DNA of 64,000 nt from an uncultured Chromatiales bacterium (GTDB lineage: Bacteria; Pseudomonadota; Gammaproteobacteria; Poriferisulfidales; Oxydemutatoraceae): contig CAYFZO010000006.1 of assembly GCA_964347615.1 (NCBI GenBank), forward strand, positions 4,126-68,125, read 5' to 3'. The notes under the pieces are model-generated. The model was not told the DNA's origin, ran no database searches, and was given only the letters and a program-made list of their open reading frames with translations. The position numbers and the translations under genes are program-made. The stretch's first letter is position 1, and each line of letters opens with the position of its first letter. This document shows, piece after piece, positions 30,431 through 51,195 of this stretch.

Positions 30431-31097
30431 CTTAATGCGTCTTGAGGTATTAGTTGAAGACCAATCAGGGCAAAAAATGCTTGAGATTCTTATCCCTAAA
30501 ATTGTTGGTGACGAACACACTTTCCGAGTTCATGCCTATAAAGGAATTGGCAACATCCCAAAAAATGTAGATAAGATACCTACCGCTAAAAATCGTTTGC
30601 TTCTTAATAACCTTTCAAGGTTGCTTAAGGGACATGGAAAAACTTTTCTCCAAAGCGGTAACTACCAAAAATGTTGCGTGGTCGTAGTTTGCGACTTAGA
30701 TGAAAAATGTTTAAAAGAATTCCGCAGGCAACTTCTTCAGGTTCTCAACAGGTGCACACATAAACCAAGAACTCAGTTTTGCATAGCTATAAAAGAAAGC
30801 GAAGCCTGGTTCCTGGGGGATACCCCAGCCGTCAAATCCGCATATCCAAGGGCAAGAGATAGGGTGCTTGACAAATTCCAACGTGATTTTATCTCTGGCA
30901 CTTGGGATTCTCTTGCCGACGCTGTCTTCCCCGGTGGCGCCAGAAAACTCCAAAATCAAGGGTGGCAGGCGATTGGCGCAGAAAAAATGAAGTGGGCTGA
31001 AAAAATCACGCCATATATGAAAGTAGACGACAATAAATCTTCCAGCTTTTGTTATTTCCGAGACAAAATGAGACAGATTCTTCAAACCAGCAATTAA
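30420..31097 (+). CDS. Toprim-like partner protein (DUF4276-like) of the preceding ATPase
   Basis: It overlaps the ATPase stop. 'RLEVLVEDQSG' is an acidic E..E.D motif and 'VVVCDLDE' is a DxD motif, in the spacing expected of a Toprim/OLD-type nuclease domain. The family name is from memory only. Confidence 0.5.
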   Translation: MRGSLMRLEVLVEDQSGQKMLEILIPKIVGDEHTFRVHAYKGIGNIPKNVDKIPTAKNRLLLNNLSRLLKGHGKTFLQSGNYQKCCVVVVCDLDEKCLKEFRRQLLQVLNRCTHKPRTQFCIAIKESEAWFLGDTPAVKSAYPRARDRVLDKFQRDFISGTWDSLADAVFPGGARKLQNQGWQAIGAEKMKWAEKITPYMKVDDNKSSSFCYFRDKMRQILQTSN

Positions 31098-31260
31098 TTT
31101 CCCCTCACCCAATCAACTTAACGTCCGCCCCCTATTCCGCGTCAGGGCGGCAACCGTATAACCGTCAAGTGTCTCAAGGAACCGCTTGGCGGCTCCACTC
31201 AGGATGCCCTCGAGCCGGCATCCGAGCATCGGTGCAGCCCACCACGTCAAGCGTGTTTTC
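31090..31260. repeat. Left copy of an imperfect direct repeat of about 170 bp (about 85% identity) bracketing the 20-kb module. The right copy is at 51,025..51,195.
   Basis: The core 'CGTATAACCGTC.AGT.TCTCAAGGAACCGCTTG.CGGC...GAGCCGGCATCCGAGCATCGGTGCAG' is shared by both copies. The minus-strand translations of both copies are homologous: APMLGCRLEGILSGAAKRFLETLDGYT versus APMLGCRLKGVLNEAVKRFLEILDGYT. Confidence 0.8.
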
Positions 31261-31370
31261 CGTGAGCTACTCGGCGTTTTCGCCCGCGCCGGCTGCTGAT
31301 GAGAGACGCCTTTACACTGAGGGCAGGCTTACGGGATAATCGCCGCAATTCAGAAAACACGGAGACAACG

Positions 31371-31883
31371 ATGGTTACAGAATGGACACGAAACGACGTT
31401 TGGCAGAATATGCTGGATGCGGAACGGCTTGTTCGATACTACGAAGTGATTTTAGATCGGTGCCAACGTAATTACATGCTGCCTCGTTTTATCCTGCTTC
31501 TCGGAATGACGGGCGTATTGATATCTTTGCTGGAATTGGTTCCGGAAGGTTACAAAGACGCCATCCAAGCCGTCTCTAGCGTCATGGTGATCGCGGCACT
31601 TGCTTGGGACTCTCATGCCAACTACGCAGGAAAGGCGCTGGTATTACAGCAGGTCAGCGTTGAATGCATCAAACTGCAAGTCGAATGGCGGGTGCTGTGG
31701 AACGCCATCGAGACTCATACCATTGAAGACGAGAAAGCGCGGGAAAAAAACGCTTGCTTAAGTCGCAGGATCGCTGCTGTAACCGTACGCCCCGGAGATG
31801 CCGGTGTCCGGGAAGACCGAAAACTCAACCGGAAGTGCGCCAGGGATGCATATAAAGTGATGGCGGGGCGGTATGCGGTGTAA
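31371..31883 (+). CDS. Small 2-TM membrane protein, a candidate SLATT-like effector
   Basis: An N-terminal helix is followed by two hydrophobic helices, 'FILLLGMTGVLISLLELV' and 'VSSVMVIAALAW', and then a helical tail. It lies 45 bp upstream of the SNF2 gene on the same strand. The start was chosen at the internal Met (31,371), which has a GGAGA ribosome-binding site. Confidence 0.35.
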   Translation: MVTEWTRNDVWQNMLDAERLVRYYEVILDRCQRNYMLPRFILLLGMTGVLISLLELVPEGYKDAIQAVSSVMVIAALAWDSHANYAGKALVLQQVSVECIKLQVEWRVLWNAIETHTIEDEKAREKNACLSRRIAAVTVRPGDAGVREDRKLNRKCARDAYKVMAGRYAV

Positions 31884-31928
31884 ATTAATTGGTTGCCATA
31901 ATAAGAAGCTCTATGGCCCAACTTTACA

Positions 31929-34900
31929 ATGAACAACGACGTCCCTCGCCCCGGAATGATTGCGACAGTTCGCAACCGGCGTGGTGTAATTGCCTCTGTT
32001 GAACCTTTTGACGGCCAAACTGGACGTATTCACCTTGTCGACATAGAGTACAAGGACAACTACGCGCCGGATACGGAACGCATCCTATGGGAACGTGAAC
32101 CTAACCGAGATCTTCTTGAACCGACCGCATTACCCGACCCAACTCAAGACCCCATGCCTCCGAAAGAGTTCGACGCGCTTTTACGCGCCGCTCGATGGAC
32201 GGCTCTTTCCCCATACCTCGACCCTGATGGTGACGGCCCCTTAGATCGAGAACCAATTTCAAGTCCATTCCACGGTGGCGTACGAGTGGAAGACTATCAG
32301 CTCGTCCCATTATTAAAAGCTCTCCGCATGCCTCGCGTGAGCTTGTTGATTGCCGACGACGTCGGGCTTGGCAAAACCGTTGAAGCAGGGCTGATTTTGA
32401 CCGAACTTCTTCTCCGACGTCGTATCCGACGCATTCTAGTCCTCACACCCGCGTCTCTGCGTCAGCAATGGCAGGATGAGCTCTGGGAGAAATTCTCACT
32501 TCGATTCAAAATTATCGATCGCAGCTCAACGGAAAAATTGCGCCGAGACCGAGGAATAGATGCAAATCCATGGCGATCATTCGACCGCATCGTTGCCTCC
32601 TACCATTATTTACGTCAACCCGACGTACGCGAACAATTTTTATCAGCATGTCATACCCCGGAAAATTCACCACACCTACCGTGGGACTTGCTGATAGTGG
32701 ACGAATGTCACAACTTGATGCCGTCATCGTTTGGAGAAGACAGCGAGCTTTGCAAAACGCTCGGTTTGGTCGCACCACGGTTTGAACACCGGCTGTTTCT
32801 TTCGGCGACTCCACACAACGGCCACACGCGTTCGTTCACCGGGCTGCTGGAAATGCTTGACCCGGTGCGCTTCACCCGCACCCACGAAATGAAACCTGCC
32901 ATGCGTGGACGAATCAACGACATAATGATTCGTCGGCTAAAACGCCAGATTAACGCTGGCAGTGCAACACCAAGATTTTGTACCCGGCATCCGCCCAAAT
33001 CTTTGGAACTCAACACAGATCCGCGCGAATCTGCCCTTTCCGAGGCTTTCGATGCCTTTCGCAGCGCTATTCGTAATCTCATCACGGAAGGAACAAAGCA
33101 GCGCCGCCGCGCTGGAATTTTTGCGGTCGAAATTCTCGGCAAACGGCTGCTCTCCTGCCCTACAACGTTTGCTGAATCTTGGAGCCGGACAAGACGGGGG
33201 TTTCGCGAACAGGATGTCTCAGATGAAACGGAATTGGCAGCCGCCGAACGGTCATTGCGTCAGGAAACCGGCGATGACAGAGAAACAGAAAAGCGCGAAG
33301 CCAATGCTGCTGCAACTATAGGTGCATGGCTTAAGAATTTTTCTGACGACGTCAAGGATGAGATCAACCGCATCGAAAAAGCGATTGATGAGCTAGGCTT
33401 TGATCTCAATGCCTCTATTGTTGAACAAACGCCTTGTGTTGACGTGCGCTTCGACACGCTTGTCTCGTTAATCGAAAATCTCCTGCGGAAGAAAAATAAG
33501 TTCCGCGATGACGAACGCTTAATCGTCTTTACAGAATACAAAACCACGCTCGATTACGTCGCTCGACGCCTGCGCGAAAAATACCCTGCCGAACGAATTT
33601 TGACGCTGTTTGGGGCCGGTGGACAGGAGGGTATGGATGAAAGCGAACGTGAAAACGTCAAAGCGGCTTTCAACAATCCGGGTTCACCTGTACGCGTTCT
33701 TATTGCGACCGACGCTGCGTCGGAGGGACTCAACCTGCACCAGACGGCACGATATTTGCTGCATTACGACTGCCCATGGAACCCGTCACGCTTGGAACAA
33801 CGCAACGGCCGCCTTGATCGTTACGGTCAAGCCCGTGACGTGACCGTGCATCACTTTGTCAGCAGTACAGATCCTGATTTGCGCTTTATTGATTGCGTTA
33901 TTCGTAAAGCAGATGAAATTCGAGAAGACCTTGGTTCCGTCAACGAAGTTTTTGACCGTGCAACTTATCGCCGCCTGATTCAAGGGGAAGATGCAGAATC
34001 AGTGAAAACAGATATGTATGCAGGGCTTGACGCCGCCCAAGAAAGCTCGGCTATTGAAGCCGACGAAACGGCCACGATAAAAAACGAAGCAGCGTCTGAT
34101 GATGCGTTGCTTGACGCAATGTCTAAAGAGATCGACTTAGATAGTTATGCACTCGGCGATACGCTTGAAGCGGCAATGATCTCATCGAGTGGTCGAAGGC
34201 CTCAACTCGAAGTCGGTGAGGAGCCGGGATGTTATCGCGTGACAAACCCGGAACTCCCCCACTGGCGTGACATTATTGATGAAACTGTACGCCGTCCATC
34301 ACTTCATGCCGCCCGCGGACCAATGCCGCAACTCGCATTTGACACTAAACAATTCATTAAGCCACTCGGATCTTTGAGTGTTTTTCTACCACGGAAAGAA
34401 GTCTTGCTTATCCACCTTGCACATCCGCTGATGCAACGTGCTCTCAGTCTCCTTACACAATGTCGCTATCCCGGTAACCGCCAAGTTTCACGATGGACGG
34501 TACGCCGAGGTGACGGAGAAATCCCAAAAGATGCTGATGCAGCCATTTTATTTAGTATTGAAGAAATTGCCGTAAATGAATTGCGCGAAACGTTTCATCG
34601 CTGGGTACGCACCGTGGTATTTCCCGTTCAGAATGGAATCCTTGGTGAACCGCTTCCACATATTCCGGCACACAGCTTTCGTGGAGCATCTGTAACGAAA
34701 AATCAAAGCGAACAAAAACAGGCAGGAGAAATCCTTGAGGAGGTTAATGGCTCACTGAGGAAATGGCTGGAACAACACCAGAAAGAACTTACCGACTCTC
34801 TCCAAAATCAACTTGAGAGTGACGGTAAAGCGGCTCGTGGACTTGAAGAGAATCGGTACAAGCAGCGGCAAGGAGAACTATCAAAACTAATCGAAGAAAC

Positions 34901-35186
34901 GACAATAGCAAAACTTACTCGAGAAATTAAGCAACTTCAAGAAAGGCTGCGGCAAAGAAAACTTTTAGATGAAGCCGAGAAAATTATGGAGATTGAACGC
35001 TCTATCAAGAAAAAAGAAGAAGAAATAGAACGTCGCCGTTCTTATTACAAAGAGATCAAAAATCAATTGAAGCGCGAACATGAACGGACTCTTAAACATC
35101 TCCTTCCTAAACGCTTTGCAATGTCAGGCAACGCTCAAGTATTCCCTGTCACAGTTGAAATTCGTTTCCCGGAACAGCAGCCTTGA
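31929..35186 (+). CDS. SNF2-family helicase (DISARM DrmD-like)
   Basis: 'DYQLVPLLKAL...LIADDVGLGKTVEAG' and 'LIVDECHNL' (DExH) are the N-terminal motifs. 'ATDAASEGLNLHQTARYLLHYDCPWNPSRLEQRNGRLDRYGQ' is the SNF2 C-terminal helicase signature. The gene is translationally coupled to the downstream methyltransferase. Confidence 0.85.
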   Translation: MNNDVPRPGMIATVRNRRGVIASVEPFDGQTGRIHLVDIEYKDNYAPDTERILWEREPNRDLLEPTALPDPTQDPMPPKEFDALLRAARWTALSPYLDPDGDGPLDREPISSPFHGGVRVEDYQLVPLLKALRMPRVSLLIADDVGLGKTVEAGLILTELLLRRRIRRILVLTPASLRQQWQDELWEKFSLRFKIIDRSSTEKLRRDRGIDANPWRSFDRIVASYHYLRQPDVREQFLSACHTPENSPHLPWDLLIVDECHNLMPSSFGEDSELCKTLGLVAPRFEHRLFLSATPHNGHTRSFTGLLEMLDPVRFTRTHEMKPAMRGRINDIMIRRLKRQINAGSATPRFCTRHPPKSLELNTDPRESALSEAFDAFRSAIRNLITEGTKQRRRAGIFAVEILGKRLLSCPTTFAESWSRTRRGFREQDVSDETELAAAERSLRQETGDDRETEKREANAAATIGAWLKNFSDDVKDEINRIEKAIDELGFDLNASIVEQTPCVDVRFDTLVSLIENLLRKKNKFRDDERLIVFTEYKTTLDYVARRLREKYPAERILTLFGAGGQEGMDESERENVKAAFNNPGSPVRVLIATDAASEGLNLHQTARYLLHYDCPWNPSRLEQRNGRLDRYGQARDVTVHHFVSSTDPDLRFIDCVIRKADEIREDLGSVNEVFDRATYRRLIQGEDAESVKTDMYAGLDAAQESSAIEADETATIKNEAASDDALLDAMSKEIDLDSYALGDTLEAAMISSSGRRPQLEVGEEPGCYRVTNPELPHWRDIIDETVRRPSLHAARGPMPQLAFDTKQFIKPLGSLSVFLPRKEVLLIHLAHPLMQRALSLLTQCRYPGNRQVSRWTVRRGDGEIPKDADAAILFSIEEIAVNELRETFHRWVRTVVFPVQNGILGEPLPHIPAHSFRGASVTKNQSEQKQAGEILEEVNGSLRKWLEQHQKELTDSLQNQLESDGKAARGLEENRYKQRQGELSKLIEETTIAKLTREIKQLQERLRQRKLLDEAEKIMEIERSIKKKEEEIERRRSYYKEIKNQLKREHERTLKHLLPKRFAMSGNAQVFPVTVEIRFPEQQP

Positions 35187-38100
35187 GTACAGAACAGACC
35201 AATGCCGATCTACCTGGATGGGATTCACTACGCCATGGTGGACTGTTGTTCGATGTTGCTCGGCTTAAAACACTTACCGAATTTATCCCCCCACGATTAA
35301 ACGAATACGTTGAACAGCAGCTACGCCACCAGGGAAGCTCTATATTGAACGAAACCGGCGACACCTCAACTTTCGTTACTTTCGTTTTAGAGCAAGTCTG
35401 CGGACTCGATGGTTCAACCGGCACTTGGTTACGCGGCAACAACGTTCCATCATCTTGGGGACGACGGGCGATTACCGGCGAGACCGTTAAACCTCGTCAT
35501 CTGTGGCAAGGACAACACGACGCGTTGCTACCAATATTCATAGACGACAAAAAACGCATCGGCATCGGCAAAGGACGTCGCACCATTAGCCAAGTGCTTG
35601 GTTGGCTTCGCGCTGGCAACAACCAACTTGCATTAATAACCAACGGTCGCCAATGGCGACTGCTGTTTGCCGGCCTCGACTATGACGCTTGGTGCGAATG
35701 GGATATGGATATGTGGTTTGAGGAGGGTGGGCTCTCGCCGCAAGTAACAGCACTGCGCACCTTGCTCAATTTTGAACTTTGGACTCCGAAATCCGAAGAC
35801 GCTCCACCACTCCTATTACAAGCGATTCGAGATACACGCAAAGGCCAAGCGGAACTCTCAGAGGAACTCGGCGAACAAGTGCGTAAAGCAGTCGAAAAGT
35901 TAATTCAAGGTCACAGCGAAGCACTTCGAGAGTACCACGATTCCGTTGCTCCTGCAGATATTTACCGTGCTGCTTGCCGCGTAGTAATGCGGCTCATAGT
36001 GATCTTGTTCGCCGAATCTCGGGACCTGCTACCTCGAGAAAATGCTCTTTACCACGGTAGCTACGGACTGAATGGACTGTTCGACCAACTCGAACACAGT
36101 GCCCACCATGGCGCGGACCTCGCGAACAGCTGGGCTGCATGGCCCCGCATACTGGCTCTGTTCAACTTAGTGCGGCAAGGATCTCATCACCCCGACTTAC
36201 CAGTAACAGCTTACGGTGGAAAGCTTTTCGCAACTGGGCGCCCAGATCCAGCGGATAGAGCATCCAAAGCAATCGATATCTTTGAACGCGAGAATCAAAG
36301 TGCATTATTTTCCGATCGAGACGTTCACAAGATGCTGAGATTGCTTACCCGCACGACCATCAGCATCCGCCAAGGACGTGGTGTGAGGAGGAGTAAGGCA
36401 CCGGTAGATTTTTCCGATCTCTCGTCTGAATACATCGGCATTCTCTACGAAGGATTATTAGACTATGAGCTTAAGACTGCTCCTGACGACGATTCGGTGG
36501 TCTTTCTGACCGTCGGCAATCGGCCAGCACTTCCACTATCGCGTTTGGAAAAAATGGAAGACGGTGCTATCAGAACCCTTTTTAAGTCTCTCAAGAAAAA
36601 GAAAGCGGTTACAGATGACGATACTTCCGAAGATAGCGAGCAAGAGAGCAAAGACGTCGAGCTGGAAAGTAAGGTTGACGAATTGTCTTTCGATGCCAAT
36701 GATGTAACGCTCTATGATAAAAATGACCAATTAGATATATCTCGGGCAGAAGCATGGGCACGTCGTGCCGTGCAAGTAGCGAAGCTAGTAAAAAAACCAC
36801 TTGTCGCGCGAGTTGTCCTACCAGGCGAATGGTATCTAGTCCGCTGGGGCGGCACTCGAAAAGGCTCTGGAAGCTTCTACACTCGACCGGGACTTGCTGT
36901 GCCAACCGTACAACGCACCCTACGCCCGCTTGCCTATGACCCACCTCCAAAAGCCAATGGAGCGCCAGATACAGCAGCGCGTGCGGAAAGTTGGATTCCG
37001 AAACTGCCGGAACAAATTCTAGACGTTAAAACATGCGACCCCGCCTGTGGATCAGGCACCTTTCCACTGGCAGCGTTACGCTTCCTCACCGATGCTTTAT
37101 ACAAATCTCTTCAACGTCATGAACGCATCAAGCGAGACGGTGAACGTTCGGTGATACGGTTACTACGCCTTCACCATGATAAAAATTCAACAACGGCTGG
37201 TGAATCTCCTTTCCACGAAGAACTTATTCCCTGCCCCCCGGACGACGGCGACTTTGAACCTCGATTAAAGGCGGTATTGCGCCGTCACGTAGTAGAGCGC
37301 TGTATCTACGCTGTAGATCTCGATCCGCTTGCCGTAGAGCTGTGTCAGCTGTCTCTGTGGATTGAAACAATGAACCGTGAACTGCCGTTCGGCTTCCTGG
37401 ATCACAAAATAAAGTGCGGCGACGCGCTACTCGGGGCATGGTTCGACCAGTTTCAACACTATCCTGTTATGGCTTGGAAAAACCGCGAGGGGGGCGATAA
37501 AAATCATTCAGAAGGCGTCCATTTTGAGAAAAACGTTCGTACGAAAAAAATCAAGGATTTTGTCAAAGATAAACTGACACCGGATCTAAAACTCTTTCTG
37601 CGAGGCCGCGATCTATTTCAGGAAGATACACTTGAAATAGCAACAACCGCTCACAAAGAATCACTTTCTGTGTTGGAGAAGATGCACAAAATGTCGGTGC
37701 AGGATACAGAGGAACGAGCGAGAATCTACCACCAGAACTTTTTGGGCAGAAAAGCATGGAGCCAAATCAAAGATGCAATGGATCTTTGGTGCGCTTGCTG
37801 GTTCTGGCCGGTAGACAAGATTGAACAGGCGCCTTTACCAAGTAACTTCGCCAAGCCACCAGGCGAGACGCTCGCTGTCGCTAAACAAACAGCGAATAAA
37901 ATGCGATTCTTCCACTGGGAACTGGAATTTCCAGACGTGTTCCAAGAGCAAGGAGCAGGCTTTAGCGCGATTTTAGGTAACCCCCCGTGGGATGCTCCAA
38001 AGCCTATCTCCAAGGAGTTTTTTTCAGATATTGACCCTCTCTACCGTACCTATGGCAAACAGGAAGCTTTGCAATATCAATCCCGCTGCTTCAAAGACGG

Positions 38101-42406: not shown

Positions 42407-42658
42407 ATGGTTGATCCAGACAAAGTAATCCTCGAAATTGCGGCACCGAAAGGGCTGTTCAAAGGGGAGTTCGAAAAAACTGTTACCGTTCAACAGGTAA
42501 TCGACGCAGTTATAGAAAAACAACAATTGCAGCGCGGCGATGTTTTTGAGCTGTTTTATAAAGGTAAGCAGCTTGAACCAGTAAAACAAACGCTGGCTGA
42601 GTTTAATCTTGCAGGAGTAGTTCAGCTCGAGCTCGTTGCTACCGGTCAAGGAGTATAG
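42407..42658 (+). CDS. Small ubiquitin-like (beta-grasp) protein
   Basis: 83 aa with a GGGAGGGA ribosome-binding site. It is the first gene of an operon that also encodes E2-like, JAB/MPN and E1-like proteins. The C-terminus reads '...LELVATGQGV'. Confidence 0.5.
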   Translation: MVDPDKVILEIAAPKGLFKGEFEKTVTVQQVIDAVIEKQQLQRGDVFELFYKGKQLEPVKQTLAEFNLAGVVQLELVATGQGV

Positions 42659-42664
42659 CGATCC

Positions 42665-43123
42665 ATGGCAACGGTATCTGAGTTGATTCTCGGTGAAGAG
42701 TTCGGTCATTTGCGCGAGATAGCCGAAGCTCGTAACTGGCCTCTCAGTCAAGTCAACAAGCGTACATTTAAGCTCACGCTTACAGCACGTGATGATGCCC
42801 GCTTCAGCTTATTGGTTAGCTGCAGCGATTACCCGCAAAAACCACCGGCTTGGCACTGGTGTAATCCTGAAACGGATGCTCTGGACCAAAAAAGCGATAC
42901 GCCGAAAGGGACTGGAGGATATTTTGACCAGTCGGGTTGCATTTGTGCGCCTTGGAACAGGCTCGCCTATCAGCAAGAGAACCCTGAAGGCCCTCACCCA
43001 GATTGGAATCTTGTGAACTGGAGGACAAATGATTGGACAAAAGGATGCACCACGCTGTCCGCAATGGCGTCACGTATCGCGGTCGAACTCATGAGCGATC
43101 GTTACCGAGGCCGGGAAATCTGA
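42665..43123 (+). CDS. E2-like (UBC-fold) candidate conjugating protein
   Basis: 152-aa protein lying between the Ubl and JAB genes. 'QSGCICAPWN' is a candidate catalytic Cys loop. The assignment is mainly by operon context. Confidence 0.35.
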   Translation: MATVSELILGEEFGHLREIAEARNWPLSQVNKRTFKLTLTARDDARFSLLVSCSDYPQKPPAWHWCNPETDALDQKSDTPKGTGGYFDQSGCICAPWNRLAYQQENPEGPHPDWNLVNWRTNDWTKGCTTLSAMASRIAVELMSDRYRGREI

Positions 43124-43128
43124 GATAA

Positions 43129-43650
43129 ATGCTTGAACGAATAAAAAAGTTGTTTTTTCGTAAACGAGTTTTCAAACCTGGTCCGCCAGAACCACCTAGA
43201 TTGATTTTAGCTCAATCCAGTGTGACTGCTCTACGGTCTTGCATGAAACCGGAAATTCGAAAAAAACACGAAAGTATCGCTTACCTTCTGGGTCAGACTA
43301 ACTCTACGACAACTTTGGTTGTGAGTGTAATCCGACCTCAGGCCCAAACCACACCGGGGAGCTTCAAGGTCGAGTCCGTAGCAATGATACGAATTATGCG
43401 TGCAGCTGTCCGTCTTGGACTTCAGGTAGTTGGACAAATACATACCCATCCTAGGAAAGCATTTCACAGCGAAGGAGACGAGGAAGGAGCACGTATTGCC
43501 TATAGCGGCTACGCTTCGATCGTGTTGCCTGATTATGGGCGACGCCTCCCCTCGTTCAAAGGAGCAGTTGCCTACATGTTCCAGACTAACAGCGGCTTTA
43601 TACCAATCGCTCCAGATTGCTTCGTGATCGTGCCGGGAAAAACATCGTGA
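43129..43650 (+). CDS. JAB/MPN+ (JAMM) metalloprotease / deubiquitinase-like
   Basis: The JAMM motif is 'GQIHTHPRKAFHSEGDEEG' (H-x-H-x7-S-x2-D). An upstream Glu lies in 'FKVESVAMIR'. Confidence 0.7.
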   Translation: MLERIKKLFFRKRVFKPGPPEPPRLILAQSSVTALRSCMKPEIRKKHESIAYLLGQTNSTTTLVVSVIRPQAQTTPGSFKVESVAMIRIMRAAVRLGLQVVGQIHTHPRKAFHSEGDEEGARIAYSGYASIVLPDYGRRLPSFKGAVAYMFQTNSGFIPIAPDCFVIVPGKTS

Positions 43651-44996
43651 ACGGGGAAGACTGGAGAAGGGAACGTGACAGTCGTTCCTTGCTCTATGCG
43701 GGGCGAGTACTCGACCGTAATCGGTGGGTGTCGCTGTGTCCTGATCCACGTTACGTGTCGCGTTACGATGGGCAAGTGGCGCTTCTGACCGCGGCGAATC
43801 TCCTTGGTCGAATGACCCCCAGTATTGCGTTGGATATTCCTGATTCAATCCCCATCGTTGATTCTCTACCTAATGCCGGGAAGAACTTGCGTGACGTGTT
43901 GCTTGACCAGCTTCATGAAGCAGATCCTTCTGGGAGTTTCTGTCGCCGCTCATATAAACCGGATGACTACATCATCAGATTCGGTAAGACCGGCGGCGTC
44001 AATACAGTGCACGGGTCGGGCTGGAAAATGTACTGCGGCCCAAGCCCATCACCTTTGGCAGAAACCGAAACGGTAAATCCAATTGGCCCAGCAATGGCTT
44101 CTATTCTTGCTGTAAGTGAAGCTTTCCGAACAAATCTTACTTCACCTCCCGGACAATACACTTTCGATGCTCTAACTTGGACTTCTGACGTAAAAGATGA
44201 AAGTGATGCTCCACTTCCTACTCAGTCGAAGCTCGGAGAAGTTTGGGTTGTTGGTACTGGCTCAGTTGGAACAGCGGTACTCTATTTTTTGAGCCTTGCT
44301 ACACGGAATTTTTCCGCGGTTCTTTTCGACATGGATATAGTCGAAATTCACAATCTGGATCGATCTCCTATATTCACGAGTAACGATGCGGATAATAAAA
44401 CAAACAAAGCAATAGCGACAAAAAGATATCTAAACCAAGTAGGAGTTTCTAACGTCAAAGCCGAACCACACGCCCTTGATGAATCCGATATCTGGAAAAA
44501 CCGTCAGCCAGGTACCCCCGACGTTTTAGTCCCGACCGCAAACGAGCGTAATGTGCGTTCCCTTATCGAAAGTTACTTTCCGCCAATCCAAGTTTACGGA
44601 ACCACGGGGCAGAACGGACAAGCCACAATGATTCGTCATATTCCCCCGCATGATCCATGTTCGCTTTGCCTATTTCCTGACACTGACCACGCACCAACGA
44701 GTTGCGCGATCGGTAAAGTTGAGAATGAAAGTAATGAAAAGAAAATTGATGCGGCGCTCCCTTTTCTATCCTTTGCTGCAGGAGCAATGGCCGTCGCCGA
44801 AATTCTAAAACTCAGCCTGCCTGATTATCCAGCCAATAGAAGTAACCGAACAATCTTGTACACAGGCTGTCCACCCCGTTTCACATCTGGACAATTATCT
44901 TTCAGAGATGGTTGCCCATGCCGGCAACGTAACTACGACCTTTATCGAAAAATAACCGAGAACACCTGCTTTTCCCACTTGATGCGTTTCTCATGA
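43617..44996 (+). CDS. E1-like ThiF/MoeB-family activating enzyme
   Basis: The Rossmann nucleotide-binding motif is 'VWVVGTGSVGTAVLYFL', with 'FDMDIVEIHNLDRS' after it. A C-terminal Cys pair lies in 'PHDPCSLCLFPDTDH...SCAIG'. Its start overlaps the JAB gene. Confidence 0.7.
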   Translation: MLRDRAGKNIVNGEDWRRERDSRSLLYAGRVLDRNRWVSLCPDPRYVSRYDGQVALLTAANLLGRMTPSIALDIPDSIPIVDSLPNAGKNLRDVLLDQLHEADPSGSFCRRSYKPDDYIIRFGKTGGVNTVHGSGWKMYCGPSPSPLAETETVNPIGPAMASILAVSEAFRTNLTSPPGQYTFDALTWTSDVKDESDAPLPTQSKLGEVWVVGTGSVGTAVLYFLSLATRNFSAVLFDMDIVEIHNLDRSPIFTSNDADNKTNKAIATKRYLNQVGVSNVKAEPHALDESDIWKNRQPGTPDVLVPTANERNVRSLIESYFPPIQVYGTTGQNGQATMIRHIPPHDPCSLCLFPDTDHAPTSCAIGKVENESNEKKIDAALPFLSFAAGAMAVAEILKLSLPDYPANRSNRTILYTGCPPRFTSGQLSFRDGCPCRQRNYDLYRKITENTCFSHLMRFS

Positions 44997-45027
44997 TTTC
45001 GTAGTTTAGGCACTCAATCGGCCAACA

Positions 45028-48000
45028 ATGTATTATCGGCTGGTTTGGAACTTTCAAAGTGCTGTATTTCCAATGGCTTTAAACCCCATCGCTTACACGG
45101 AAAGCGTCGTCCGTAGTTTTCTGCGTTACCAACTTACGGCGTACCCTTTCGCTGACCAAAGATTGCACGAACAGATGTGCAAATTGCTGTCTCTTAACGA
45201 AACTCGTCAGTCTCCCCTCCTCAAAGGCCCCTACGTCAGCTTATCGCGCTCATTCCGGCAAGGCGCTTCAGTCGCGTCTTTAGTGAAAGAAAGGCTGCTA
45301 CACCCTCACTTACAACAACGTATTCGCAACGAAGTTACACATCTCTATAGTCATCAAGAAAAAGCGATCCGTGCTATTGCGAAGAAGCAGACAACCCTCG
45401 TATCCACCGGAACCGGTTCAGGCAAAACCGAATGCTTCCTCTATCCCATCATTAGCCAATGCCTGAAACTCAGGGATGAAAAAGCATCCCCCGGTATTAG
45501 CGCGGTCATTGTCTATCCGATGAACGCATTGGCGGAAGATCAGCTCATGCGATTACGCGGCCTGTTGGCAGGCACTGGAATTCCATTTGGGATTTATGTA
45601 GGCAAGACACCTGAGAATGAAGCCGATGTGACTGGCGTTAAATTGCATGATGGGGCGTCACGGGATGATTACGAAACCCGGCTGAAACGAGCACAACAAG
45701 AAAGCAGCGGCGAGACGGTTTATCCAGCAGAAGAGGTTTGTTCACGGGAGGTTATGCGCACAGAAGGCAAACAGCCACGAATTCTCTTAACCAACGTGAA
45801 GCAGCTTGAGCTGCTGCTGACGCGGCAGATAGATATTCAACTGTTCGCTAATGCTCGACTGGATTTTCTGGTATTCGATGAGGCTCATACGTTCACTGGG
45901 GCGCTAGGAGCGGAAACAGCCTGCCTAATCCGGCGCCTGCGTGCATTCTGTGACATCAATATAAACCACACTACATGCGTCGCTACCTCAGCAACGATCG
46001 TTGATAAGGAAGAGCCTGACGCCGCCCGAAAATTCGCCGCACGATTTTTCGGCGTTCCACGCGAAGCAGTAACTACAGTTAATGAAGACTACGAAAAAGA
46101 CGTTTGGGAAGAGCCACGGTTTGTTCCCACTGCTCCCCCTGAAAAAGCTGCCGATATTCTCAGCAACTGTATTGAGGCAGTTGAAGACGAAGACAATTCA
46201 AACGCTGAAAAAATAGAGGCAATCTATCGTGCGTTAACCGGCGAGGGCCTGCCCGAAAGAAACTGGCCGGAAGCCCTGCACAATGCTATGTCTCGCAATG
46301 ATCTGGTTTTTCGCTTGAACGAGGAGCTCCATACCCCGAGGGAGCTGGCGGAATTACCAGCAGCACTTGAACGGCATATCGACCGCCCTGTAGCTGAGGA
46401 AGAAATTCTTGCTTGGCTGACGTTAGGGGCGGCAGCACGCAAGCAAGGTCGACCTTTATTACGCCCCATCGTACATAACTTCGTACGCGGCATCAGCGGC
46501 GCCGTGGTGACATTTCCTAAAGATATGAATAGCCCGAAGCTATGGCTCGCTGCAAAAGACGAGGGTGAGATTGAACCTGACACGTCTGAAGATAAACATG
46601 CGCATTTTCCTGTAACGACCTGTACTACTTGTGGACAGCACTACTTCATTGCGTTCCTAAAAGACTTCTCTTTCACCGGAAACGTGCCTGAGGGCGGTGA
46701 AACCAGCTCCACCGGCCCTTGGTGGTCTTCGAAAGAAGAAACTTTGGGTGGTAAACGCGTTGTTCTAGTAGACAAATTGATTGGAGAAAGTGACGAAGAC
46801 GAGGACACGTCTCCTCATGCGAAGATGGCACCACTCTATTTCTGTCGCCGATGCGGAACAGCACACCTTGAAACACAGTCACGATGCCTTTGCTGTGGAT
46901 ATGAAAATGGTACGGTTCAGCTGCACGCAGTCCGCCAGAAGGAAAAAAATCCTGGCAAACTGGCCAGCTGCCTTTCTTGTGGTTCTACCAGTCGTCGACT
47001 CGGCGGGGATTACCGCGAACCAGCCCGGCCCGTGCGTGCAGTTAACGTGGCGGACGTGCACGTTCTCACCCAAGACATGGTGCACCACGCAGAACGACGT
47101 CGTCTGCTCGTATTCTGCGATAACCGGCAGGACGCGGCATTTCAAGCTGGCTGGATGAAAGACCGCGCCCGACGTTTCAGGTTACGAGCGTTAATGATGG
47201 AAAACATCAAAAAAAGCGCGTGCTCCGTAGGCGATTTGGCCGGGCATCTCGATAAGTTAATGGAAAAAGATGAAACCCTTTCACGAGCGTTGCTTCCTGA
47301 GGTATGGCGCGTTGCACGTCGAGAAGACAGCGGTACCCGCCACCAACAGGAACGCTACAAGTTTCTTCGCTTCCAAGTATTGCGCGAAGTTACACTGCCG
47401 TCACGACAAGCGGTTGGTCTCGAGCCATGGGGCCGCATGAAAATCGAATACACGGGGCTCGACGCGGTGCTACCATGGATTCAGAAGCATGCTCATTCCC
47501 TAAGCCTCCCCCCAGATGGCTTGCGGGAAGGCGTCGCAAGCGTACTCGACTACTTGAGACGAAGAGGGGTGCTGTATGACCCTGAGAATGAGATATTTAC
47601 GAAATACTGGGGAAAAGGAGACCTTGAGATCCAGCGTGGGTACTTACCCGACTCTATTCGACCCAACTCCACCAAGCTACAGCGCCAAGCAGATGAAAAA
47701 CGGGAAGTAATTATTCAATGGATAAGCGACAGGGGCAGCCCAACGGTACCCCAAATCGTCAAGAAATGGGGGGCAGAGAAAAACGCAATCAAACCACTTT
47801 TGGAAAGCTTGTTTCAATTCTTAAAGGAAAACAAACTACTAGTGCCTGTACGACTTAAAGGTTACAAAGGCCGCGCGCTCCCAAAGGTACACGGCGTCTA
47901 CCAAGTAAATAGCGACAAATTACTGTTGACTCCGAACAAAGGCATGAGACGTTGTCGTAGCTGTCGCCGCACTACCACTCGGAACTTACCTTACGACCAC

Positions 48001-51000
48001 TGCCCTGCCCGGAATTGCAACGGAACTTTGGAATGGGTGCCGGAAGATCCAGACAACTATGATTTGCATCTGCTCGATAGCGCATACGAAATGCTGCGTC
48101 CGGAAGAACACACTGCTATGGTCCCATCTGAGGACCGCGAACGTTTTGAGAACTTGTTTAAGGGTGAATCAGAGGCAGTAAATTGTCTGGTGTGTACCCC
48201 AACGTTGGAACTAGGAATTGATATCGGGCGACTCGACTCAGTCCTGATGCGCAACGTACCCCCGTTGCCGGCAAATTATTGGCAGCGCGCCGGACGCGCC
48301 GGACGGCGACATCGCATGGCGGTGAATGTCACCTATTGCCGACCAGTCTCACACGACCGTGCCTACTTCTCAGAGCCGCCTAAATTGCTGGCAGGCAGGA
48401 TTGACCCTCCGGCATTTAATCTAAGAAACGAAGTGATGGTCGAAAAACACGTTCACGCAATAATCATCGCCTCTTTGTATCGCTATTGTCATGATAACGC
48501 TAGACCAGAAGCGGAACGTAACACGATACAGGAAACTTTGCTCAATTGTTTTCCCTCGTTTATCTCGCCTTATCTATTCGATGACAATGAAGAAGTACGG
48601 ACAACGCTGTTCGGCTTCACTTCCTTACGCGATTTAGTTCAGGAAAACTATCAAGCATTGGTCACCGACGTGCAACGTGTGTTTGAGCAAGGATGGCCAG
48701 AGACGGATGCCGACGTTGTAACCCAAGAAGCTCTTTCTGCCTACGTCGCCAAATTCGCCGATAACTTGGAAAACGTCGTCAAACGTTTGCAGCGCCGTCT
48801 GCGTTGGGCTATGAACCAGATTCAGCGCCTCAATAATCACCGTCAGAGCCAGGGAACGCTTTCCCGTGAGGATGAAACGCTATTCCGCCGTTGCGACAAT
48901 CTGGTAAAACGACTAAAAGGCACGAGCTGGAGACGACGAAGCCGAGCGGAAGGGCACTACGACTCGAACACGTTCAGCGTGCTCTCAGCGGAGGGATTCC
49001 TGCCGGGTTACGGCCTGGAAGTCGGCTCGATAAGAGGTGAAGCGGAAATTCCACCCTGGCTCCCCGGAGCTAAGAGTTTTTCTTTACCTCGACCGCCTGC
49101 AATCGCTCTACGTGAATACGTTCCTGGCAATCTCATCTATGCCAACGGACAACGTTTTGTCGCGCGTCACTTTCGCCGCGAGGCAGGCGAGGAATATTCA
49201 GAGATGCCGTGCTACGAAGTATCAATTGACCACCAAGCCGTTAAGCCCGTTAGTTTAAATGCACCCTCGTCATTAGGCGGATACGTCCTCCAAACAATAT
49301 CCGTCTGTGATACGGACTTAATTCATACTTCACACATATCCGACGAAGAAGAATTTCGGTTTCAATTAGGCTTAGCTATTTACGGATTGGAAATCAAGCA
49401 GCACAACGGCGGAATCTCATATCGTTGGGGAGAAAAAACCATGCAACATCGCCGTGGAGTACATATACAACTTGTCAACGTAGGGGCTTTGCTCGCCATC
49501 CGCAAAGGAGAAATTGGTTATCCTGTCTGCACGGTATGCGGCCAAAGTATCTCCCCTATTTCCTCTGACAGACAGCACCAAGAGTTTGTTAAAGATCACA
49601 AGGAACGTTGTGGACGTGAGCCAAAATCTATCGGTTTCTATACCAACGTAGTTGCCGACGCGCTTTCGCTGCCTGAGTGTGACAACTTGGAAATCGCGTA
49701 CAGCGTCTTAGAGTCTTTGCGCTTCGCCGCTACTAGAGTACTTGACATGCATACGGAAGACTTGCAGGTGCTTGTTATAGGACACGTTGAACGAGACGGC
49801 GTAGATGCTTTGTTATGGGATCCAATGCCTGGTGGATCCGGGCTGCTTGACCGCGTGTGTGAACGCTTTGATGAAATCGTGCAAGCAGCTAAAGAAATCG
49901 TTAGTGATTGTCCCGCAGTATGTGACTCATCCTGCATAGATTGCCTTCAGACGTTCCGCAACGCTTATTACCATGAGCACCTCAATCGCCATACAGCCCA
50001 AACACGATTGGAAGAATGGGGAGAACAGCTGGTACGCCGTCACGATATTCCACCGTTGCAACAAAACATTGCCTCCAGCAAAAATGCAATGCCGGTTAAC
50101 GAGGCAGAAACCAAGCTGCGGCACCTGCTACTCGCCGCTGGATTTGACGAAGGCATCCGAGACGAACAGATTCAGTTAGATCGAGCAATAGGAACTACAA
50201 CACCTGACGTAATCTACCGAACGGAAACCGATGGAACAGACGAAGGTGTATGTATTTATTTGGACGGATTGAGTGCACATATCCATGGCAACCCAAAAAC
50301 CGCTGAGAAAGACAGGGAAATCCGGGATTGGTTACGCAATAGAGGATATGAGGTCATTGAAATCACCGCTAACCAGTTAGACGATGAAGATGCAATGACA
50401 CGTCACTTTCGCCGCCTCGCAAGATATTTGCAGATGCCAGATACATTAAGCCGGCTGCGTGATGATCACTCGTGGTTTCGCCAATCTAAAAAGGCATCAG
50501 TTTCTCCTTTGCGATTGGTTACACCGACACCTGAAACGCGTTATGTCACCTGCGTGCCTCTAGTCCCCTTGCAGATTGCCGCAGGGACGTTTGGCGATCC
50601 CAATGCCGCTCCCGACGAATCCGAATGGCAGTGGGTAAAACTTAACTCAGTACGCACGCTGCGCCCTGGAATGTTTGTTGCTGCCGTAACTGGAAAATCT
50701 ATGGAGCCAAAAATACCCGATGGCTCATACTGCCTTTTTTCCGGCCCTGTCACTGGGACGCGGCAAGAAAAAATCGTGCTTGCTCAAATGCACGACACGA
50801 TTGACCCTGAAACCGGGGCCAGGTTTACTGTAAAACGCTATCGGAGCACGAAAGGGGAAAACGACGATGGCTGGCGACACATCAAAATCACCCTTGAACC
50901 TATTAACCCTGACTATCAACCGATTGAGTTAGCGACGGATAACGAGAACTCCGTCACAGTAGCCGCGGAACTGGTTAGCGTTCTTGGCCAAGACGCTCCT

Positions 51001-51024
51001 GTAGATGATACGGATTCTCTCTAA
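45028..51024 (+). CDS. Giant (1,998-aa) multidomain protein. Domains in order: DEAD/DEAH SF2 helicase with multiple Zn-ribbon insertions, a DUF1998 (MrfA/DrmA-B)-like region, a DUF559/Vsr-like nuclease-fold region, and a C-terminal LexA/S24 peptidase domain.
   Basis: Motif I 'VSTGTGSGKTECF' is at about residue 126, motif II 'VFDEAHTF' at about 281, and motif VI 'QRAGRAGRR' at about 1,086. CxxC pairs are present ('CTTCGQ', 'CRRCG...CLCCG', 'CLSCG', 'CRSCRR...CPARNC', 'CTVCGQ...C'). 'GVCIYLDGLSAHIHGNP...EIRDW...YEVIEI' is at about residue 1,740. The C-terminus reads 'PLVPLQIAAGTFGDP' followed by 'TGKSMEPKIPDGSY...KR', the S24 Ser/Lys dyad. Confidence 0.8.
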   Translation: MYYRLVWNFQSAVFPMALNPIAYTESVVRSFLRYQLTAYPFADQRLHEQMCKLLSLNETRQSPLLKGPYVSLSRSFRQGASVASLVKERLLHPHLQQRIRNEVTHLYSHQEKAIRAIAKKQTTLVSTGTGSGKTECFLYPIISQCLKLRDEKASPGISAVIVYPMNALAEDQLMRLRGLLAGTGIPFGIYVGKTPENEADVTGVKLHDGASRDDYETRLKRAQQESSGETVYPAEEVCSREVMRTEGKQPRILLTNVKQLELLLTRQIDIQLFANARLDFLVFDEAHTFTGALGAETACLIRRLRAFCDININHTTCVATSATIVDKEEPDAARKFAARFFGVPREAVTTVNEDYEKDVWEEPRFVPTAPPEKAADILSNCIEAVEDEDNSNAEKIEAIYRALTGEGLPERNWPEALHNAMSRNDLVFRLNEELHTPRELAELPAALERHIDRPVAEEEILAWLTLGAAARKQGRPLLRPIVHNFVRGISGAVVTFPKDMNSPKLWLAAKDEGEIEPDTSEDKHAHFPVTTCTTCGQHYFIAFLKDFSFTGNVPEGGETSSTGPWWSSKEETLGGKRVVLVDKLIGESDEDEDTSPHAKMAPLYFCRRCGTAHLETQSRCLCCGYENGTVQLHAVRQKEKNPGKLASCLSCGSTSRRLGGDYREPARPVRAVNVADVHVLTQDMVHHAERRRLLVFCDNRQDAAFQAGWMKDRARRFRLRALMMENIKKSACSVGDLAGHLDKLMEKDETLSRALLPEVWRVARREDSGTRHQQERYKFLRFQVLREVTLPSRQAVGLEPWGRMKIEYTGLDAVLPWIQKHAHSLSLPPDGLREGVASVLDYLRRRGVLYDPENEIFTKYWGKGDLEIQRGYLPDSIRPNSTKLQRQADEKREVIIQWISDRGSPTVPQIVKKWGAEKNAIKPLLESLFQFLKENKLLVPVRLKGYKGRALPKVHGVYQVNSDKLLLTPNKGMRRCRSCRRTTTRNLPYDHCPARNCNGTLEWVPEDPDNYDLHLLDSAYEMLRPEEHTAMVPSEDRERFENLFKGESEAVNCLVCTPTLELGIDIGRLDSVLMRNVPPLPANYWQRAGRAGRRHRMAVNVTYCRPVSHDRAYFSEPPKLLAGRIDPPAFNLRNEVMVEKHVHAIIIASLYRYCHDNARPEAERNTIQETLLNCFPSFISPYLFDDNEEVRTTLFGFTSLRDLVQENYQALVTDVQRVFEQGWPETDADVVTQEALSAYVAKFADNLENVVKRLQRRLRWAMNQIQRLNNHRQSQGTLSREDETLFRRCDNLVKRLKGTSWRRRSRAEGHYDSNTFSVLSAEGFLPGYGLEVGSIRGEAEIPPWLPGAKSFSLPRPPAIALREYVPGNLIYANGQRFVARHFRREAGEEYSEMPCYEVSIDHQAVKPVSLNAPSSLGGYVLQTISVCDTDLIHTSHISDEEEFRFQLGLAIYGLEIKQHNGGISYRWGEKTMQHRRGVHIQLVNVGALLAIRKGEIGYPVCTVCGQSISPISSDRQHQEFVKDHKERCGREPKSIGFYTNVVADALSLPECDNLEIAYSVLESLRFAATRVLDMHTEDLQVLVIGHVERDGVDALLWDPMPGGSGLLDRVCERFDEIVQAAKEIVSDCPAVCDSSCIDCLQTFRNAYYHEHLNRHTAQTRLEEWGEQLVRRHDIPPLQQNIASSKNAMPVNEAETKLRHLLLAAGFDEGIRDEQIQLDRAIGTTTPDVIYRTETDGTDEGVCIYLDGLSAHIHGNPKTAEKDREIRDWLRNRGYEVIEITANQLDDEDAMTRHFRRLARYLQMPDTLSRLRDDHSWFRQSKKASVSPLRLVTPTPETRYVTCVPLVPLQIAAGTFGDPNAAPDESEWQWVKLNSVRTLRPGMFVAAVTGKSMEPKIPDGSYCLFSGPVTGTRQEKIVLAQMHDTIDPETGARFTVKRYRSTKGENDDGWRHIKITLEPINPDYQPIELATDNENSVTVAAELVSVLGQDAPVDDTDSL

Positions 51025-51195
51025 CCCCCTCACCTATCAGCTTCAACACCCACTCCCTATTCCACGTCAGATCGGCAATCGTATAACCGTCGAGTATCTC
51101 AAGGAACCGCTTGACGGCCTCATTCAGGACGCCCTTGAGCCGGCATCCGAGCATCGGTGCAGTCCGCCGCGTCACGAGCGTCTCGTGCAATCAGC
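51025..51195. repeat. Right copy of the imperfect direct repeat of about 170 bp (see 31,090..31,260)
   Basis: It overlaps the last codons of the giant helicase gene. It carries an intact start of a minus-strand ORF fragment (50,975..51,190, 'MHETLVTRRTAPMLGCRLKGVLNEAVKRFLEILDGY...'). Confidence 0.8.

Follow-up and report, generated by a model that had tools for sequence, protein, structure and literature searches.

Relics of two regulator genes form the direct repeats around a 20-kb segment of a defence hotspot and are probable footprints of homologous recombination

Introduction

Some core defence hotspots have been described as having no single mobilising element, and homology of the flanks was proposed as the route by which their content is exchanged (PMC10250203). 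The locus presented here raises this matter in a concrete form: a segment of about 20 kb carrying defence genes lies between two imperfect copies of the same short sequence, and the question is what this sequence is and how it came to stand on both sides. A first-pass annotation, made from the sequence alone, took both copies for the N-terminal end of a protein-coding gene and proposed cassette exchange between paralogous boundary genes. The copies were dissected in the window (the whole 64-kb stretch of DNA that was analysed) and compared with sister metagenome contigs, referred to as L003, L004 and L007.

The Repeats and the Segment Between Them

The imperfect direct repeats bracketing the segment were confirmed. 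Positions 31101-31256 and 51026-51181, separated by an offset of 19925, are 81% identical over 156 nt in an ungapped alignment. Identity is 82% over 149 nt and rises to 87% for the central 111 nt; the longest perfect match between the two copies is 26 nt. When gaps are allowed the homology covers 31066-31262 and 51004-51190, that is, about 190 columns with 77% identity, one 14-nt indel and one 2-nt indel.

The repeat is rare. Patterns of 26 and 34 nt each occur exactly twice in the window, against 0 occurrences expected from shuffled sequences, and no third copy was found in the 64 kb. Exact-pattern scans gave 0 matches in GTDB species genomes (two scans), JGI metagenomes and IMG/VR, using first a 21-mer, whose sequence varies in L003 and L004, and then a 26-nt pattern shared unchanged by 4/4 alleles; blastn against plasmid and phage collections gave no match either. 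A dispersed element of the REP or MITE kind, an outcome that the first-pass annotation had itself held up against its proposal, is ruled out by the two window copies and the 0 matches in all the collections just named, and on the same figures its view that the repeat is not an IS end stands.

The genes concerned are the following:

29141..31097, plus strand: HEC-01A/B (AAA_21 ATPase and DUF4276; PADLOC E 1e-191 and 4e-86)
31299..51024: bracketed segment of about 20 kb; Pfam and PADLOC scans find a SLATT-like gene, a DrmD-like SNF2 helicase, a type IIG/DrmMI-like methylase-nuclease, PIN, Bil-like E2/JAB/E1 genes and a DruE-like helicase with MZB and S24 domains
41096-42229, minus strand: intact, diverged HTH-M78 regulator, a paralogue inside the island
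51296..52492, minus strand: protein of 398 aa outside the right repeat, the first island gene beside the core glutamine amidotransferase (GATase) gene (52757-53443)

The GC content is about 50% in the bracketed segment and 66-68% in the flanking core. HEC-01A/B lies outside the left repeat, beside the bufferin operon, and belongs to a backbone that by blast is partly common to L003 and L007. The 398-aa protein, for which Pfam and PADLOC gave no match, is conserved in all sister contigs as alleles of 390, 398 or 410 aa. Pfam scans of about 40 larger ORFs (positions 9-56152) found no integrase, recombinase, excisionase or transposase, in agreement with the preference of the first-pass annotation for cassette exchange over a transposon insertion, and there is no tRNA in the 64 kb.

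Composite Make-Up of the Repeat Unit

Each copy is a non-functional composite relic of two regulator genes, and neither a live gene nor the 5' end of one. The order of parts is the same in both: about 20-27 nt from the middle of an HTH-M78 gene, the last ~42 codons of an Rrf2/NsrR-like gene up to its stop, and about 22 nt of downstream DNA. This arrangement is called here the M78-Rrf2 scar, and its parts are:

51191..51251, minus strand: start of the resident HTH-M78 gene, the first 61 nt from the ATG, abutting the right unit
51164..51190, minus strand: right unit, part 1, M78-derived, 27 nt, TTGCACGAGACGCTCGTGACGCGGCGG, corresponding to nt ~384-410 of the HTH-M78 regulator gene
51026..51163, minus strand: right unit, part 2, Rrf2/NsrR-like 3' fragment of 46 codons, TAPMLGCRLKGVLNEAVKRFLEILDGYTIADLTWNREWVLKLIGEG
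51004..51025, minus strand: right unit, part 3, shared DNA downstream of the Rrf2 stop, ~22 nt, from gapped alignments
31239..31256, minus strand: left unit, part 1, M78-derived, CACGCT--TGACGTGGTGG, shortened and diverged, with the same Rrf2 junction
31113..31238, minus strand: left unit, part 2, Rrf2/NsrR-like 3' fragment of 41 codons, AAPMLGCRLEGILSGAAKRFLETLDGYTVAALTRNRGRTLS
31066..31100, minus strand: left unit, part 3, a 14-nt left-specific insertion (31087-31100) and then the shared downstream flank of ~21 nt

The M78-derived part of the right unit, which contains the palindrome CACGAG-N3-CTCGTG, agrees at 96-100% with the M78 genes that are intact in L003 (nt 284-310 of the annotated ORF) and in L007 (12555-12581). 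The 61 nt beside it are 98% identical to L003 16912-16973 and to the M78 start of L007, and an internal deletion of M78 nt ~62-383 joins them to the right unit, leaving a remnant ORF of 43 codons (51120-51251); this also accounts for repeat family D2 of the window. Alignments of left and right copies show that their homology extends some 20-25 nt beyond the M78-Rrf2 junction.

The main body of the unit derives from the 3' end of an Rrf2/NsrR-like gene. The right fragment matches positions 101-138 of 141 of the NCBIfam model for NsrR (NF008240, E 1.3e-6), and the left one matches the same family with E 1e-3; the match to Pfam Rrf2 covers positions 103-130, and a profile search retrieves full-length Rrf2 proteins. 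With E. coli NsrR as query, tblastn finds 49% over residues 102-138 in the right copy and 54% over residues 102-127 in the left, and no other part of the Rrf2 gene in the window. What is present is the C-terminal dimerisation helix that follows the third Cys ligand; the N-terminal winged helix and two of the three cluster-ligand Cys are missing from both fragments. The search for an intact parent gene gave nothing above ~46% identity, and L007 has none at this locus. The main body was also tried as a diverged C-terminus of the HTH-M78, PIN or 398-aa protein, and this origin was rejected (Smith-Waterman scores against shuffles, p at least 0.09; nothing by blast).

The fragments are decayed in different ways. 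In the scar of L003 a TAG stop is found exactly at the point where homology to other contexts stops. In the right copy a 1-nt deletion removed the original stop, so that the frame continues to 50975, and the ORF of 59 or 71 aa exists because of this deletion. In the left copy a premature TGA (31113-31115) ends the frame after 41 codons; a credible start is missing, and homology runs on to 31101. Downstream, the right unit overlaps the last 7 codons and the stop (51022-51024) of the plus-strand gene of the DruE-like helicase (ORF 45028-51024, 1998 aa), an overlap that had been described correctly; on the left the shared flank encodes the last codons of HEC-01B in a frame other than that of DruE, the HEC-01B stop (ORF 30420-31097) being contained in the 14-nt insertion.

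The minus-strand frame named by the first-pass annotation is open in both copies and its protein-coding origin holds; the identification as an N-terminus does not, for the 71-aa fragment has its parent family in Rrf2/NsrR and matches the C-terminal ~40 residues of these regulators, fused to the HTH-M78 piece. The claim that differences fall largely at synonymous or conservative positions could not be sustained either: the 23 differences are split 10/8/5 over codon positions 1/2/3, with 3 synonymous against 17 non-synonymous codons, substitutions among four alleles are split 7/10/5, and tests of all six frames gave no synonymous bias.

Turnover of the Hotspot in Sister Contigs

The locus is a defence hotspot located between the GATase gene and the bufferin (bufA1) operon and common to the sister metagenome contigs. 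L003 carries a single copy of the scar with the same boundary as in the window, followed by a different cassette (Mza), and this 6.9-kb block of scar and Mza cassette lies between 410-bp direct repeats of the M78 5' region that start exactly at the ATG. L007 represents a minimal state, with no scar and one intact M78 gene, and is the single-copy state relative to the 410-bp repeat of L003; it may be a descendant of an L003-like state and not its ancestor. The gain/loss polymorphism between these two contigs is bounded by the M78 repeats and not by the Rrf2 fragment.

Of the exchange scenario of the first-pass annotation, the defence hotspot is upheld, its content differing behind the same boundary in L003 and L007, while the paralogous boundary genes are not, the copies being decayed relics. 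Related genomes supplied the alternative cassette (L003) and the minimal state (L007), and a haplotype with just one, hybrid copy (398 aa - M78' - scar - HEC-01B) was not encountered among the sister contigs. The 398-aa gene was also considered together with M78 and the scar as a conserved module, which was rejected since neither an M78 gene nor the scar follows its homologues in 32 JGI loci.

L004 is nearly identical to the window from 49.5 to 52.75 kb except for 12 SNPs inside the right copy, a conversion patch confined to that copy. The four scar alleles form a mosaic with incompatible sites, and the SNPs are distributed in several patches rather than around one clean reciprocal crossover point. 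A further GATase homologue, with 67% identity (L008), has a different genomic context, and no ancestral Rrf2 gene is therefore visible there.

Origin of the Repeats

The explanation preferred here, with a probability of roughly 0.6, is that the repeats are footprints, and possibly substrates, of integrase-independent homologous recombination in the defence hotspot, the repeated sequence being a composite gene relic with no function of its own. The identical M78-Rrf2 junction in both window copies and in one sister-strain copy shows that all of them come from one event, which would have been a deletion or illegitimate join fusing the 5' part of an HTH-M78 gene (ImmA/IrrE type) to the last ~140 nt of an Rrf2/NsrR-like gene. 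Outwards, the right copy passes without a break into the backbone (398-aa gene and M78 start), collinear with L003 and L007, and its inner junction is novel; the left copy is the mirror image, continuous outwards into HEC-01B and with a novel inner junction. Outer continuity, novel inner junctions and mosaic alleles make up the geometry of a Campbell-type scar, and all three are present in the window and the alleles. A circular or looped DNA with a homologous fragment of ~190 bp and the cargo may have entered by a single (Campbell-type) crossover, and unequal recombination between strains would lead to the same geometry. The same recombination logic is seen directly in the 410-bp-bounded block of L003 and the single-copy state of L007. 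By extension, the two window copies would themselves mediate exchange, or gain and loss, of the 20-kb block and could still be substrates for RecA-type deletion, exchange and gene conversion, although with 26 nt of perfect identity efficient recombination by RecA would today be at the margin. A founder scar followed by later insertions would describe the history equally well.

The first alternative, which seems unlikely, is that each copy arrived with a different cassette from a different donor, the scar acting as a portable homology arm that was never duplicated within the genome. The copies are indeed 13-23% diverged, compared with 1.6-3% between sister contigs, the L003 scar adjoins a third, unrelated cassette, and the reticulate mosaic of alleles is in line with such arrivals. 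The scar was found, however, in this lineage alone in every collection searched, so that no outside donors are visible, and this alternative differs from recombination within the hotspot as set out above in nothing other than the place of duplication.

Slightly less probable again is site-specific integration. Many genomic islands target tRNA genes or the 3' ends of protein genes, and the repeats could accordingly be read as attL and attR of an integrative island directed to the 3' end of an Rrf2/NsrR gene and carrying a surrogate 3' end. Direct orientation, a gene 3' end including the stop codon, a 20-kb island of low GC and a perfectly shared block of 26 nt are all compatible with this, and an ancient event of such kind could have first produced the Rrf2 fragment. 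On the other side, Pfam scans of the larger ORFs of the 64-kb window contain none of the enzymes expected of such an island (integrase, recombinase, excisionase or transposase), the 5' part of Rrf2 is found neither beside either copy nor elsewhere in the window nor in L007, L003 has one copy only, and the polymorphism actually observed has M78 and not Rrf2 boundaries. No intact target gene was found at either junction; the same M78 fragment is attached upstream of both copies, and the duplicated sequence is therefore the composite scar and not the end of a target gene.

It is a rather doubtful elaboration of the preferred recombination scenario that the scar, or M78 5' fragments in general, are selected as a portable homology arm allowing integrase-free entry of cassettes, restoration of the regulator and exit by the reverse route, possibly with a candidate factor acting at CACGAG-N3-CTCGTG. 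Cassettes of this lineage would then travel with a piece of the resident regulator and enter by a single crossover inside that regulator.

A cis-acting non-coding element at the cassette boundaries (a structured RNA, an operator or terminator, or an attC-like site) is very improbable. The unit does always lie at the boundary between cassettes, its consensus folds with many pairs, a weak terminator-like hairpin occurs on the plus strand of the left copy, and GTTAGAC/GTTAGAG at the end of the homology resembles by eye the GTTRRRY core of integrons. A structured RNA was nevertheless rejected, with no Rfam match, fold z-scores inconsistent between copies (-2.2, -0.6, -1.5, +1.0, +1.7 and +0.5), and at most one compensatory pair and no covariation; promoters and terminators are not beyond chance. 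Integron gene cassettes have an IntI integrase, attC sites with inverse cores (RYYYAAC...GTTRRRY) and a hairpin-forming bottom strand. An attC site was rejected as well, the locus having no IntI, no inverse core at the other end, no consistent structure and a cargo of 20 kb with genes on both strands, and GTTAG being in L003 simply the stop codon (TAG) of Rrf2.

Just as improbable is a small functional protein duplicated with the cassettes (the 59-71-aa ORF, or an HTH-only M78 5' part with 14 unit codons): a gene caller predicts a gene of 59 or 44 aa on the unit in three contigs, and the M78 5' fragment plus unit of L003 is an intact ORF of 152 codons with the whole HTH domain, but substitutions look non-coding in every frame, starts and stops vary per copy (41, 44 and 59 codons), an ATG-led ORF of at least 50 aa is missing from the left copy, the HTH ORF of the window is cut to 43 codons by the internal deletion, the fragment is without the wHTH domain and two of the three Rrf2 Cys ligands, and homologues outside this lineage are absent, 3 proteins among 5.8 billion matching the repeat ORF, all from this lineage. 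Caution is advised in annotating the 59-aa "gene" predicted on the repeat, which is a relic of an Rrf2 regulator.

This is a fairly ordinary finding that reveals no new mechanism or element. It provides a nucleotide-resolution view of the remodelling of one chromosomal defence hotspot that has no mobile-element genes: pieces of regulator genes have been duplicated where the cassettes join, and what distinguishes the sister strains is exactly the DNA enclosed by such repeats. It thereby supports the published proposal of turnover of core defence hotspots through homologous recombination.

Comparison with Known Systems

From the third cluster-ligand Cys onwards the body of the repeat aligns with the C-terminal helix of the Rrf2 family (NsrR/RirA-like; CRLKGVL..A...F...LDGYT.ADL..NR) and is 37-46% identical to full-length members; unlike these it consists of the last ~42 codons only, with a frameshift, a stop and no purifying selection, and is a relic rather than a member gene. 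The inner ends of the units and the 61 nt beside the right unit match the 5' part of the intact sister-strain gene for an HTH-peptidase M78 regulator (ImmA/IrrE type; PADLOC RmrA, CapH/CapP-like) at 96-100%, whereas of that gene only nt 1-61 and ~384-410 remain, with no peptidase domain.

With the att repeats that genomic islands derive from the 3' end of a target gene, the locus shares direct repeats of a gene 3' end and stop flanking low-GC DNA; it differs in having no integrase and no intact target gene, in including a foreign M78 fragment and in an identity of only 81-87%. A parallel also exists with the core defence hotspots cDHS1/2 of P. aeruginosa (PMC10250203), where likewise fixed core genes (GATase and the bufferin bufA1 operon in the present case) enclose a variable defence set, the content varies between sister strains and there is no single mobilising element, while in the present locus the cassette junctions are marked by internal relic repeats, the M78-Rrf2 scar and the 410-bp M78 duplication, and not by the core flanks alone.

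The repeat and the surrounding island

The imperfect direct repeat that the first-pass annotation had described at the edges of a ~20-kb block of defence genes was confirmed by pairwise alignment, repeat search and ungapped comparison, which agree on 81% identity over 156 nt (31101-31256 versus 51026-51181, spacing 19,925). Identity is 87% in the central 111 nt, and gapped homology (31066-31262 versus 51004-51190) amounts to 77% over ~190 columns, the left copy carrying a 14-nt insertion and a 2-nt deletion relative to the right one. Each of two patterns taken from the repeat has exactly two occurrences in the window and none in shuffles which, together with the alignments, means that the repeat is real, far beyond chance and non-dispersed within the window. 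A REP-like element present at many genomic locations, which the annotation had considered, was not found: the patterns have no match in 185,579 GTDB species genomes, nor has the unit in JGI metagenomes, IMG/VR, INPHARED phages or PLSDB plasmids, and it is lineage-restricted.

Both copies lie in an island of ~50% GC (~29.0-52.7 kb; organism ~65%), flanked by the core bufferin operon BufA1-MbnB-HvfC on the left and a GATase gene on the right.

Components of the island, from left to right
29141-31097: HEC-01A/B (AAA_21 and DUF4276)
Left repeat
SLATT-like ORF
DrmD-like SNF2 helicase
Type IIG/DrmMI-like enzyme, 1791 aa
PIN gene and intact HTH-peptidase-M78 (ImmA/IrrE-type) regulator (41096-42229), minus strand
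42665-51024: Bil-like E2/JAB/E1 genes and, directly downstream, a DruE-like helicase (1998 aa) with MZB (DUF1998) and C-terminal S24 (LexA-like) peptidase domains
Right repeat
51296-52492: 398-aa protein without Pfam or PADLOC match

The Bil-like and DruE-like block adjoins the divergently transcribed HTH-M78 and PIN pair, an unusual grouping that may constitute one system. The 398-aa protein contains a 39-nt in-frame tandem repeat (51737-51815) encoding the acidic motif VVTDVEEEE(L/P)DAE, with two copies in the window and three in the sister contig L003 (8980-9097). Its homologues occur in 32 JGI metagenome contigs (31-52% identity), and neither M78 genes nor the scar are linked to them at these 32 loci.

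Composite origin of the repeat

Exact-protein look-ups matched the window to the ENA metagenome contig NODE_142 (100% identical) and also retrieved the sister haplotypes L003, L004 and L007, all three of which belong to a second sample. Aligned with these, the repeat resolves into a decayed composite whose internal junction is shared by both copies.

M78-derived segments at the right boundary
51164-51190 (27 nt): innermost part of the right copy, nt ~384-410 of the HTH-M78 gene, 96-100% identical to the intact genes of L003 and L007
51191-51251 (61 nt): beside the right copy, first 61 nt of the HTH-M78 gene, from the ATG

Since nt 1-61 are joined to nt ~384-410, the M78 gene at the right boundary is a pseudogene with an internal deletion, which also accounts for the minor repeat D2 seen in the window's repeat search. 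The junction of M78 with the remaining DNA is identical in the left copy; what is repeated is therefore a single composite scar and not a gene end.

The other ~140 nt derive from the 3' end of an Rrf2/NsrR-like gene. They match, weakly, the extreme C-terminus of the Pfam Rrf2 model and, in the four alleles of the window and sister contigs, positions 101-138 of 141 of the NCBIfam NsrR equivalog model (E 1.3e-6, 1.3e-6, 1.9e-4 and 1e-3); an NsrR chain was the sole, weak match in the PDB. With an E. coli NsrR query, tblastn gave 49% identity for the right copy (residues 102-138) and 54% for the left (102-127), and no further Rrf2-like pieces elsewhere in the window. Among the matches of an index-free profile search (1.84 billion representatives), the full-length ones were ~150-aa Rrf2 proteins aligned at residues ~104-138. 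The frame ends in L003 at a TAG inside GGGGGTTAGA, exactly where cross-context homology stops; the right copy has lost 1 nt at this position, so that its frame runs on as a 59/71-aa ORF, and in the left copy a TGA comes earlier. Both window copies also share ~22 nt downstream of the Rrf2 stop, within which the HEC-01B and DruE genes both end, in different frames. The nearest intact Rrf2 relatives are just 37-46% identical, meaning that either the fragment is old or its parent gene has yet to be sampled.

Sister haplotypes at the hotspot

Related haplotypes, in which the annotation had suggested looking for an empty or alternative cassette, show another cargo next to the shared boundary in L003, a minimal state in L007 and, between them, a presence/absence polymorphism bounded by repeats.

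The 790-kb L003 contig (core 96.7% identical to the window) has the same GATase gene, a 410-aa gene, an M78 5' fragment and one scar. The next cassette is an Mza system (Dcm methylase, MzaB, MzaC/Z1, NOV_C); beyond it come the intact M78 gene, SLATT-like gene and truncated HEC-01 of this contig. The M78 sequence from ATG to junction (410 nt) is present twice in direct orientation (96% identity), flanking 6.9 kb that comprise the scar and Mza. On L007 (1.15 Mb) the order is GATase, 390-aa gene, a single intact M78 gene, SLATT-like gene, 64-nt HEC-01 remnant and bufA1; the contig lacks the Rrf2 fragment, and the 5' region of its M78 gene combines both L003 copies as a mosaic. The two contigs differ by exactly the DNA between the direct repeats, the signature of a Campbell-type insertion or of a deletion by homologous recombination.

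The right copy carries a conversion patch: in L004, arranged as the window and 98.4% identical, it shows 12 differences inside an otherwise near-identical stretch (49.5-52.75 kb), several of them matching the window's left copy, which indicates local gene conversion or recombination. Site patterns among the four alleles are incompatible.

Two side observations concern the same contigs. Three tandem 66-nt repeats (80% identical; L003 18212-18409) lie between the M78 3' end and the SLATT-like gene, at the exact spot where the window has the PIN, type IIG and DrmD genes. A HEC-01B deletion breakpoint (window 30539) is common to L003 (19099) and L007 (14121-14184, window 30476-30539), and L007 additionally lacks HEC-01A; HEC-01 is thus eroding in the sister strains and intact in the window.

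Origin of the two copies

We consider it somewhat favoured (probability about 0.6) that ~20 kb of defence DNA bearing a homologous scar underwent a single crossover or unequal exchange with the scar already resident, and that the resulting copies could still serve as substrates for deletion or exchange, only weak ones because their longest perfect match is a 26-mer. The geometry fits such an origin: on the outside, the right copy continues collinearly into the backbone, and on the inside it meets the DruE end at a novel junction; the left copy likewise has its novel junction on the inside and continues outwards into HEC-01B. Independent arrival of the copies with different cassettes is less probable, as no donor outside the lineage turned up in the collections searched. 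An integrase-borne island aimed at the Rrf2 3' end, with the copies as att sites, is likewise less probable than recombination between scars: site-specific machinery is absent from the locus, as Pfam scans of ~40 larger ORFs (9-56152) found no integrase or transposase in the 64 kb, which also contain no tRNA or Rfam family.

A small functional protein encoded by the unit also ranks below scar recombination. The strand and frame proposed by the first-pass annotation are correct, and the frame is open in both copies, but the gene is a dead Rrf2 gene, not a live one, and the part concerned is its 3' end, not the 5' end. Nor were the differences of the synonymous type claimed: the 23 between the copies fall 10/8/5 at codon positions 1/2/3 (3 synonymous versus 17 non-synonymous codons), and the four-allele pattern is 7/10/5, with no third-position bias in any frame of either strand. 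In the left copy no start codon yields an ORF of at least 50 aa, and the frame stops after 41 codons; the right-hand ORF matches only three proteins, all from the same lineage, in a 5.8-billion-protein collection. These sequence features argue against a live coding sequence, although the frame is open. A cis-acting RNA or attC-like site is also less probable than scar recombination, the folding z-scores being inconsistent, compensatory pairs numbering at most one, and promoter and terminator scans giving no signal beyond chance. A further reading, of low probability, is that pieces of regulator genes serve as selected, portable arms of homology by which cassettes are captured without an integrase.

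Other loci in the window

A CRISPR array (~6994-8858; ~37-nt repeat GCTTCAATGAAGCCGGCGCAACGTTGCGCCGGATTTC) adjoins cas genes; the locus (6994-18136) is type I-U/I-G-like and lies in a second low-GC patch.

Defence-type genes at the window's left end (455-6222), followed by the cas genes
455-2107: AAA_15/AAA_21 ATPase
2107-5223: ResIII helicase, 1038 aa, with TnsA-like/RE nuclease end
5284-6222: AbiJ_NTD4-DUF7014 protein
9081-9374: cas2
9381-11105: cas4-cas1 fusion
11223-13415: GSU0054
13424-14530: GSU0053
15419-18136: cas3

Beside the CRISPR-cas block, and conserved in L007, a second peptidase-M78 gene (385 aa, 19770-20927) adjoins an ORF weakly matching DUF4411 (19318-19767). A 105-nt tandem repeat (2.9 copies, 22572-22872) lies within an ORF of 381 aa upstream of a RES-domain gene, and the GC-rich DNA to the left of the bufferin operon contains a ~755-nt imperfect direct repeat (23859-24613 versus 25019-25743, 85.7% identical).

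Comparison with known defence hotspots

The feature belongs to a kind already known, the scars of recombination and relics of genes within defence islands, of which it is a new instance; it can help annotation and serve as a worked example, and will not surprise a specialist. In the core defence hotspots of P. aeruginosa, turnover is not explained by any single mobile element and recombination via conserved flanks was proposed (PMC10250203). The present locus behaves similarly; here individual cassette junctions are marked by relic repeats inside the island.
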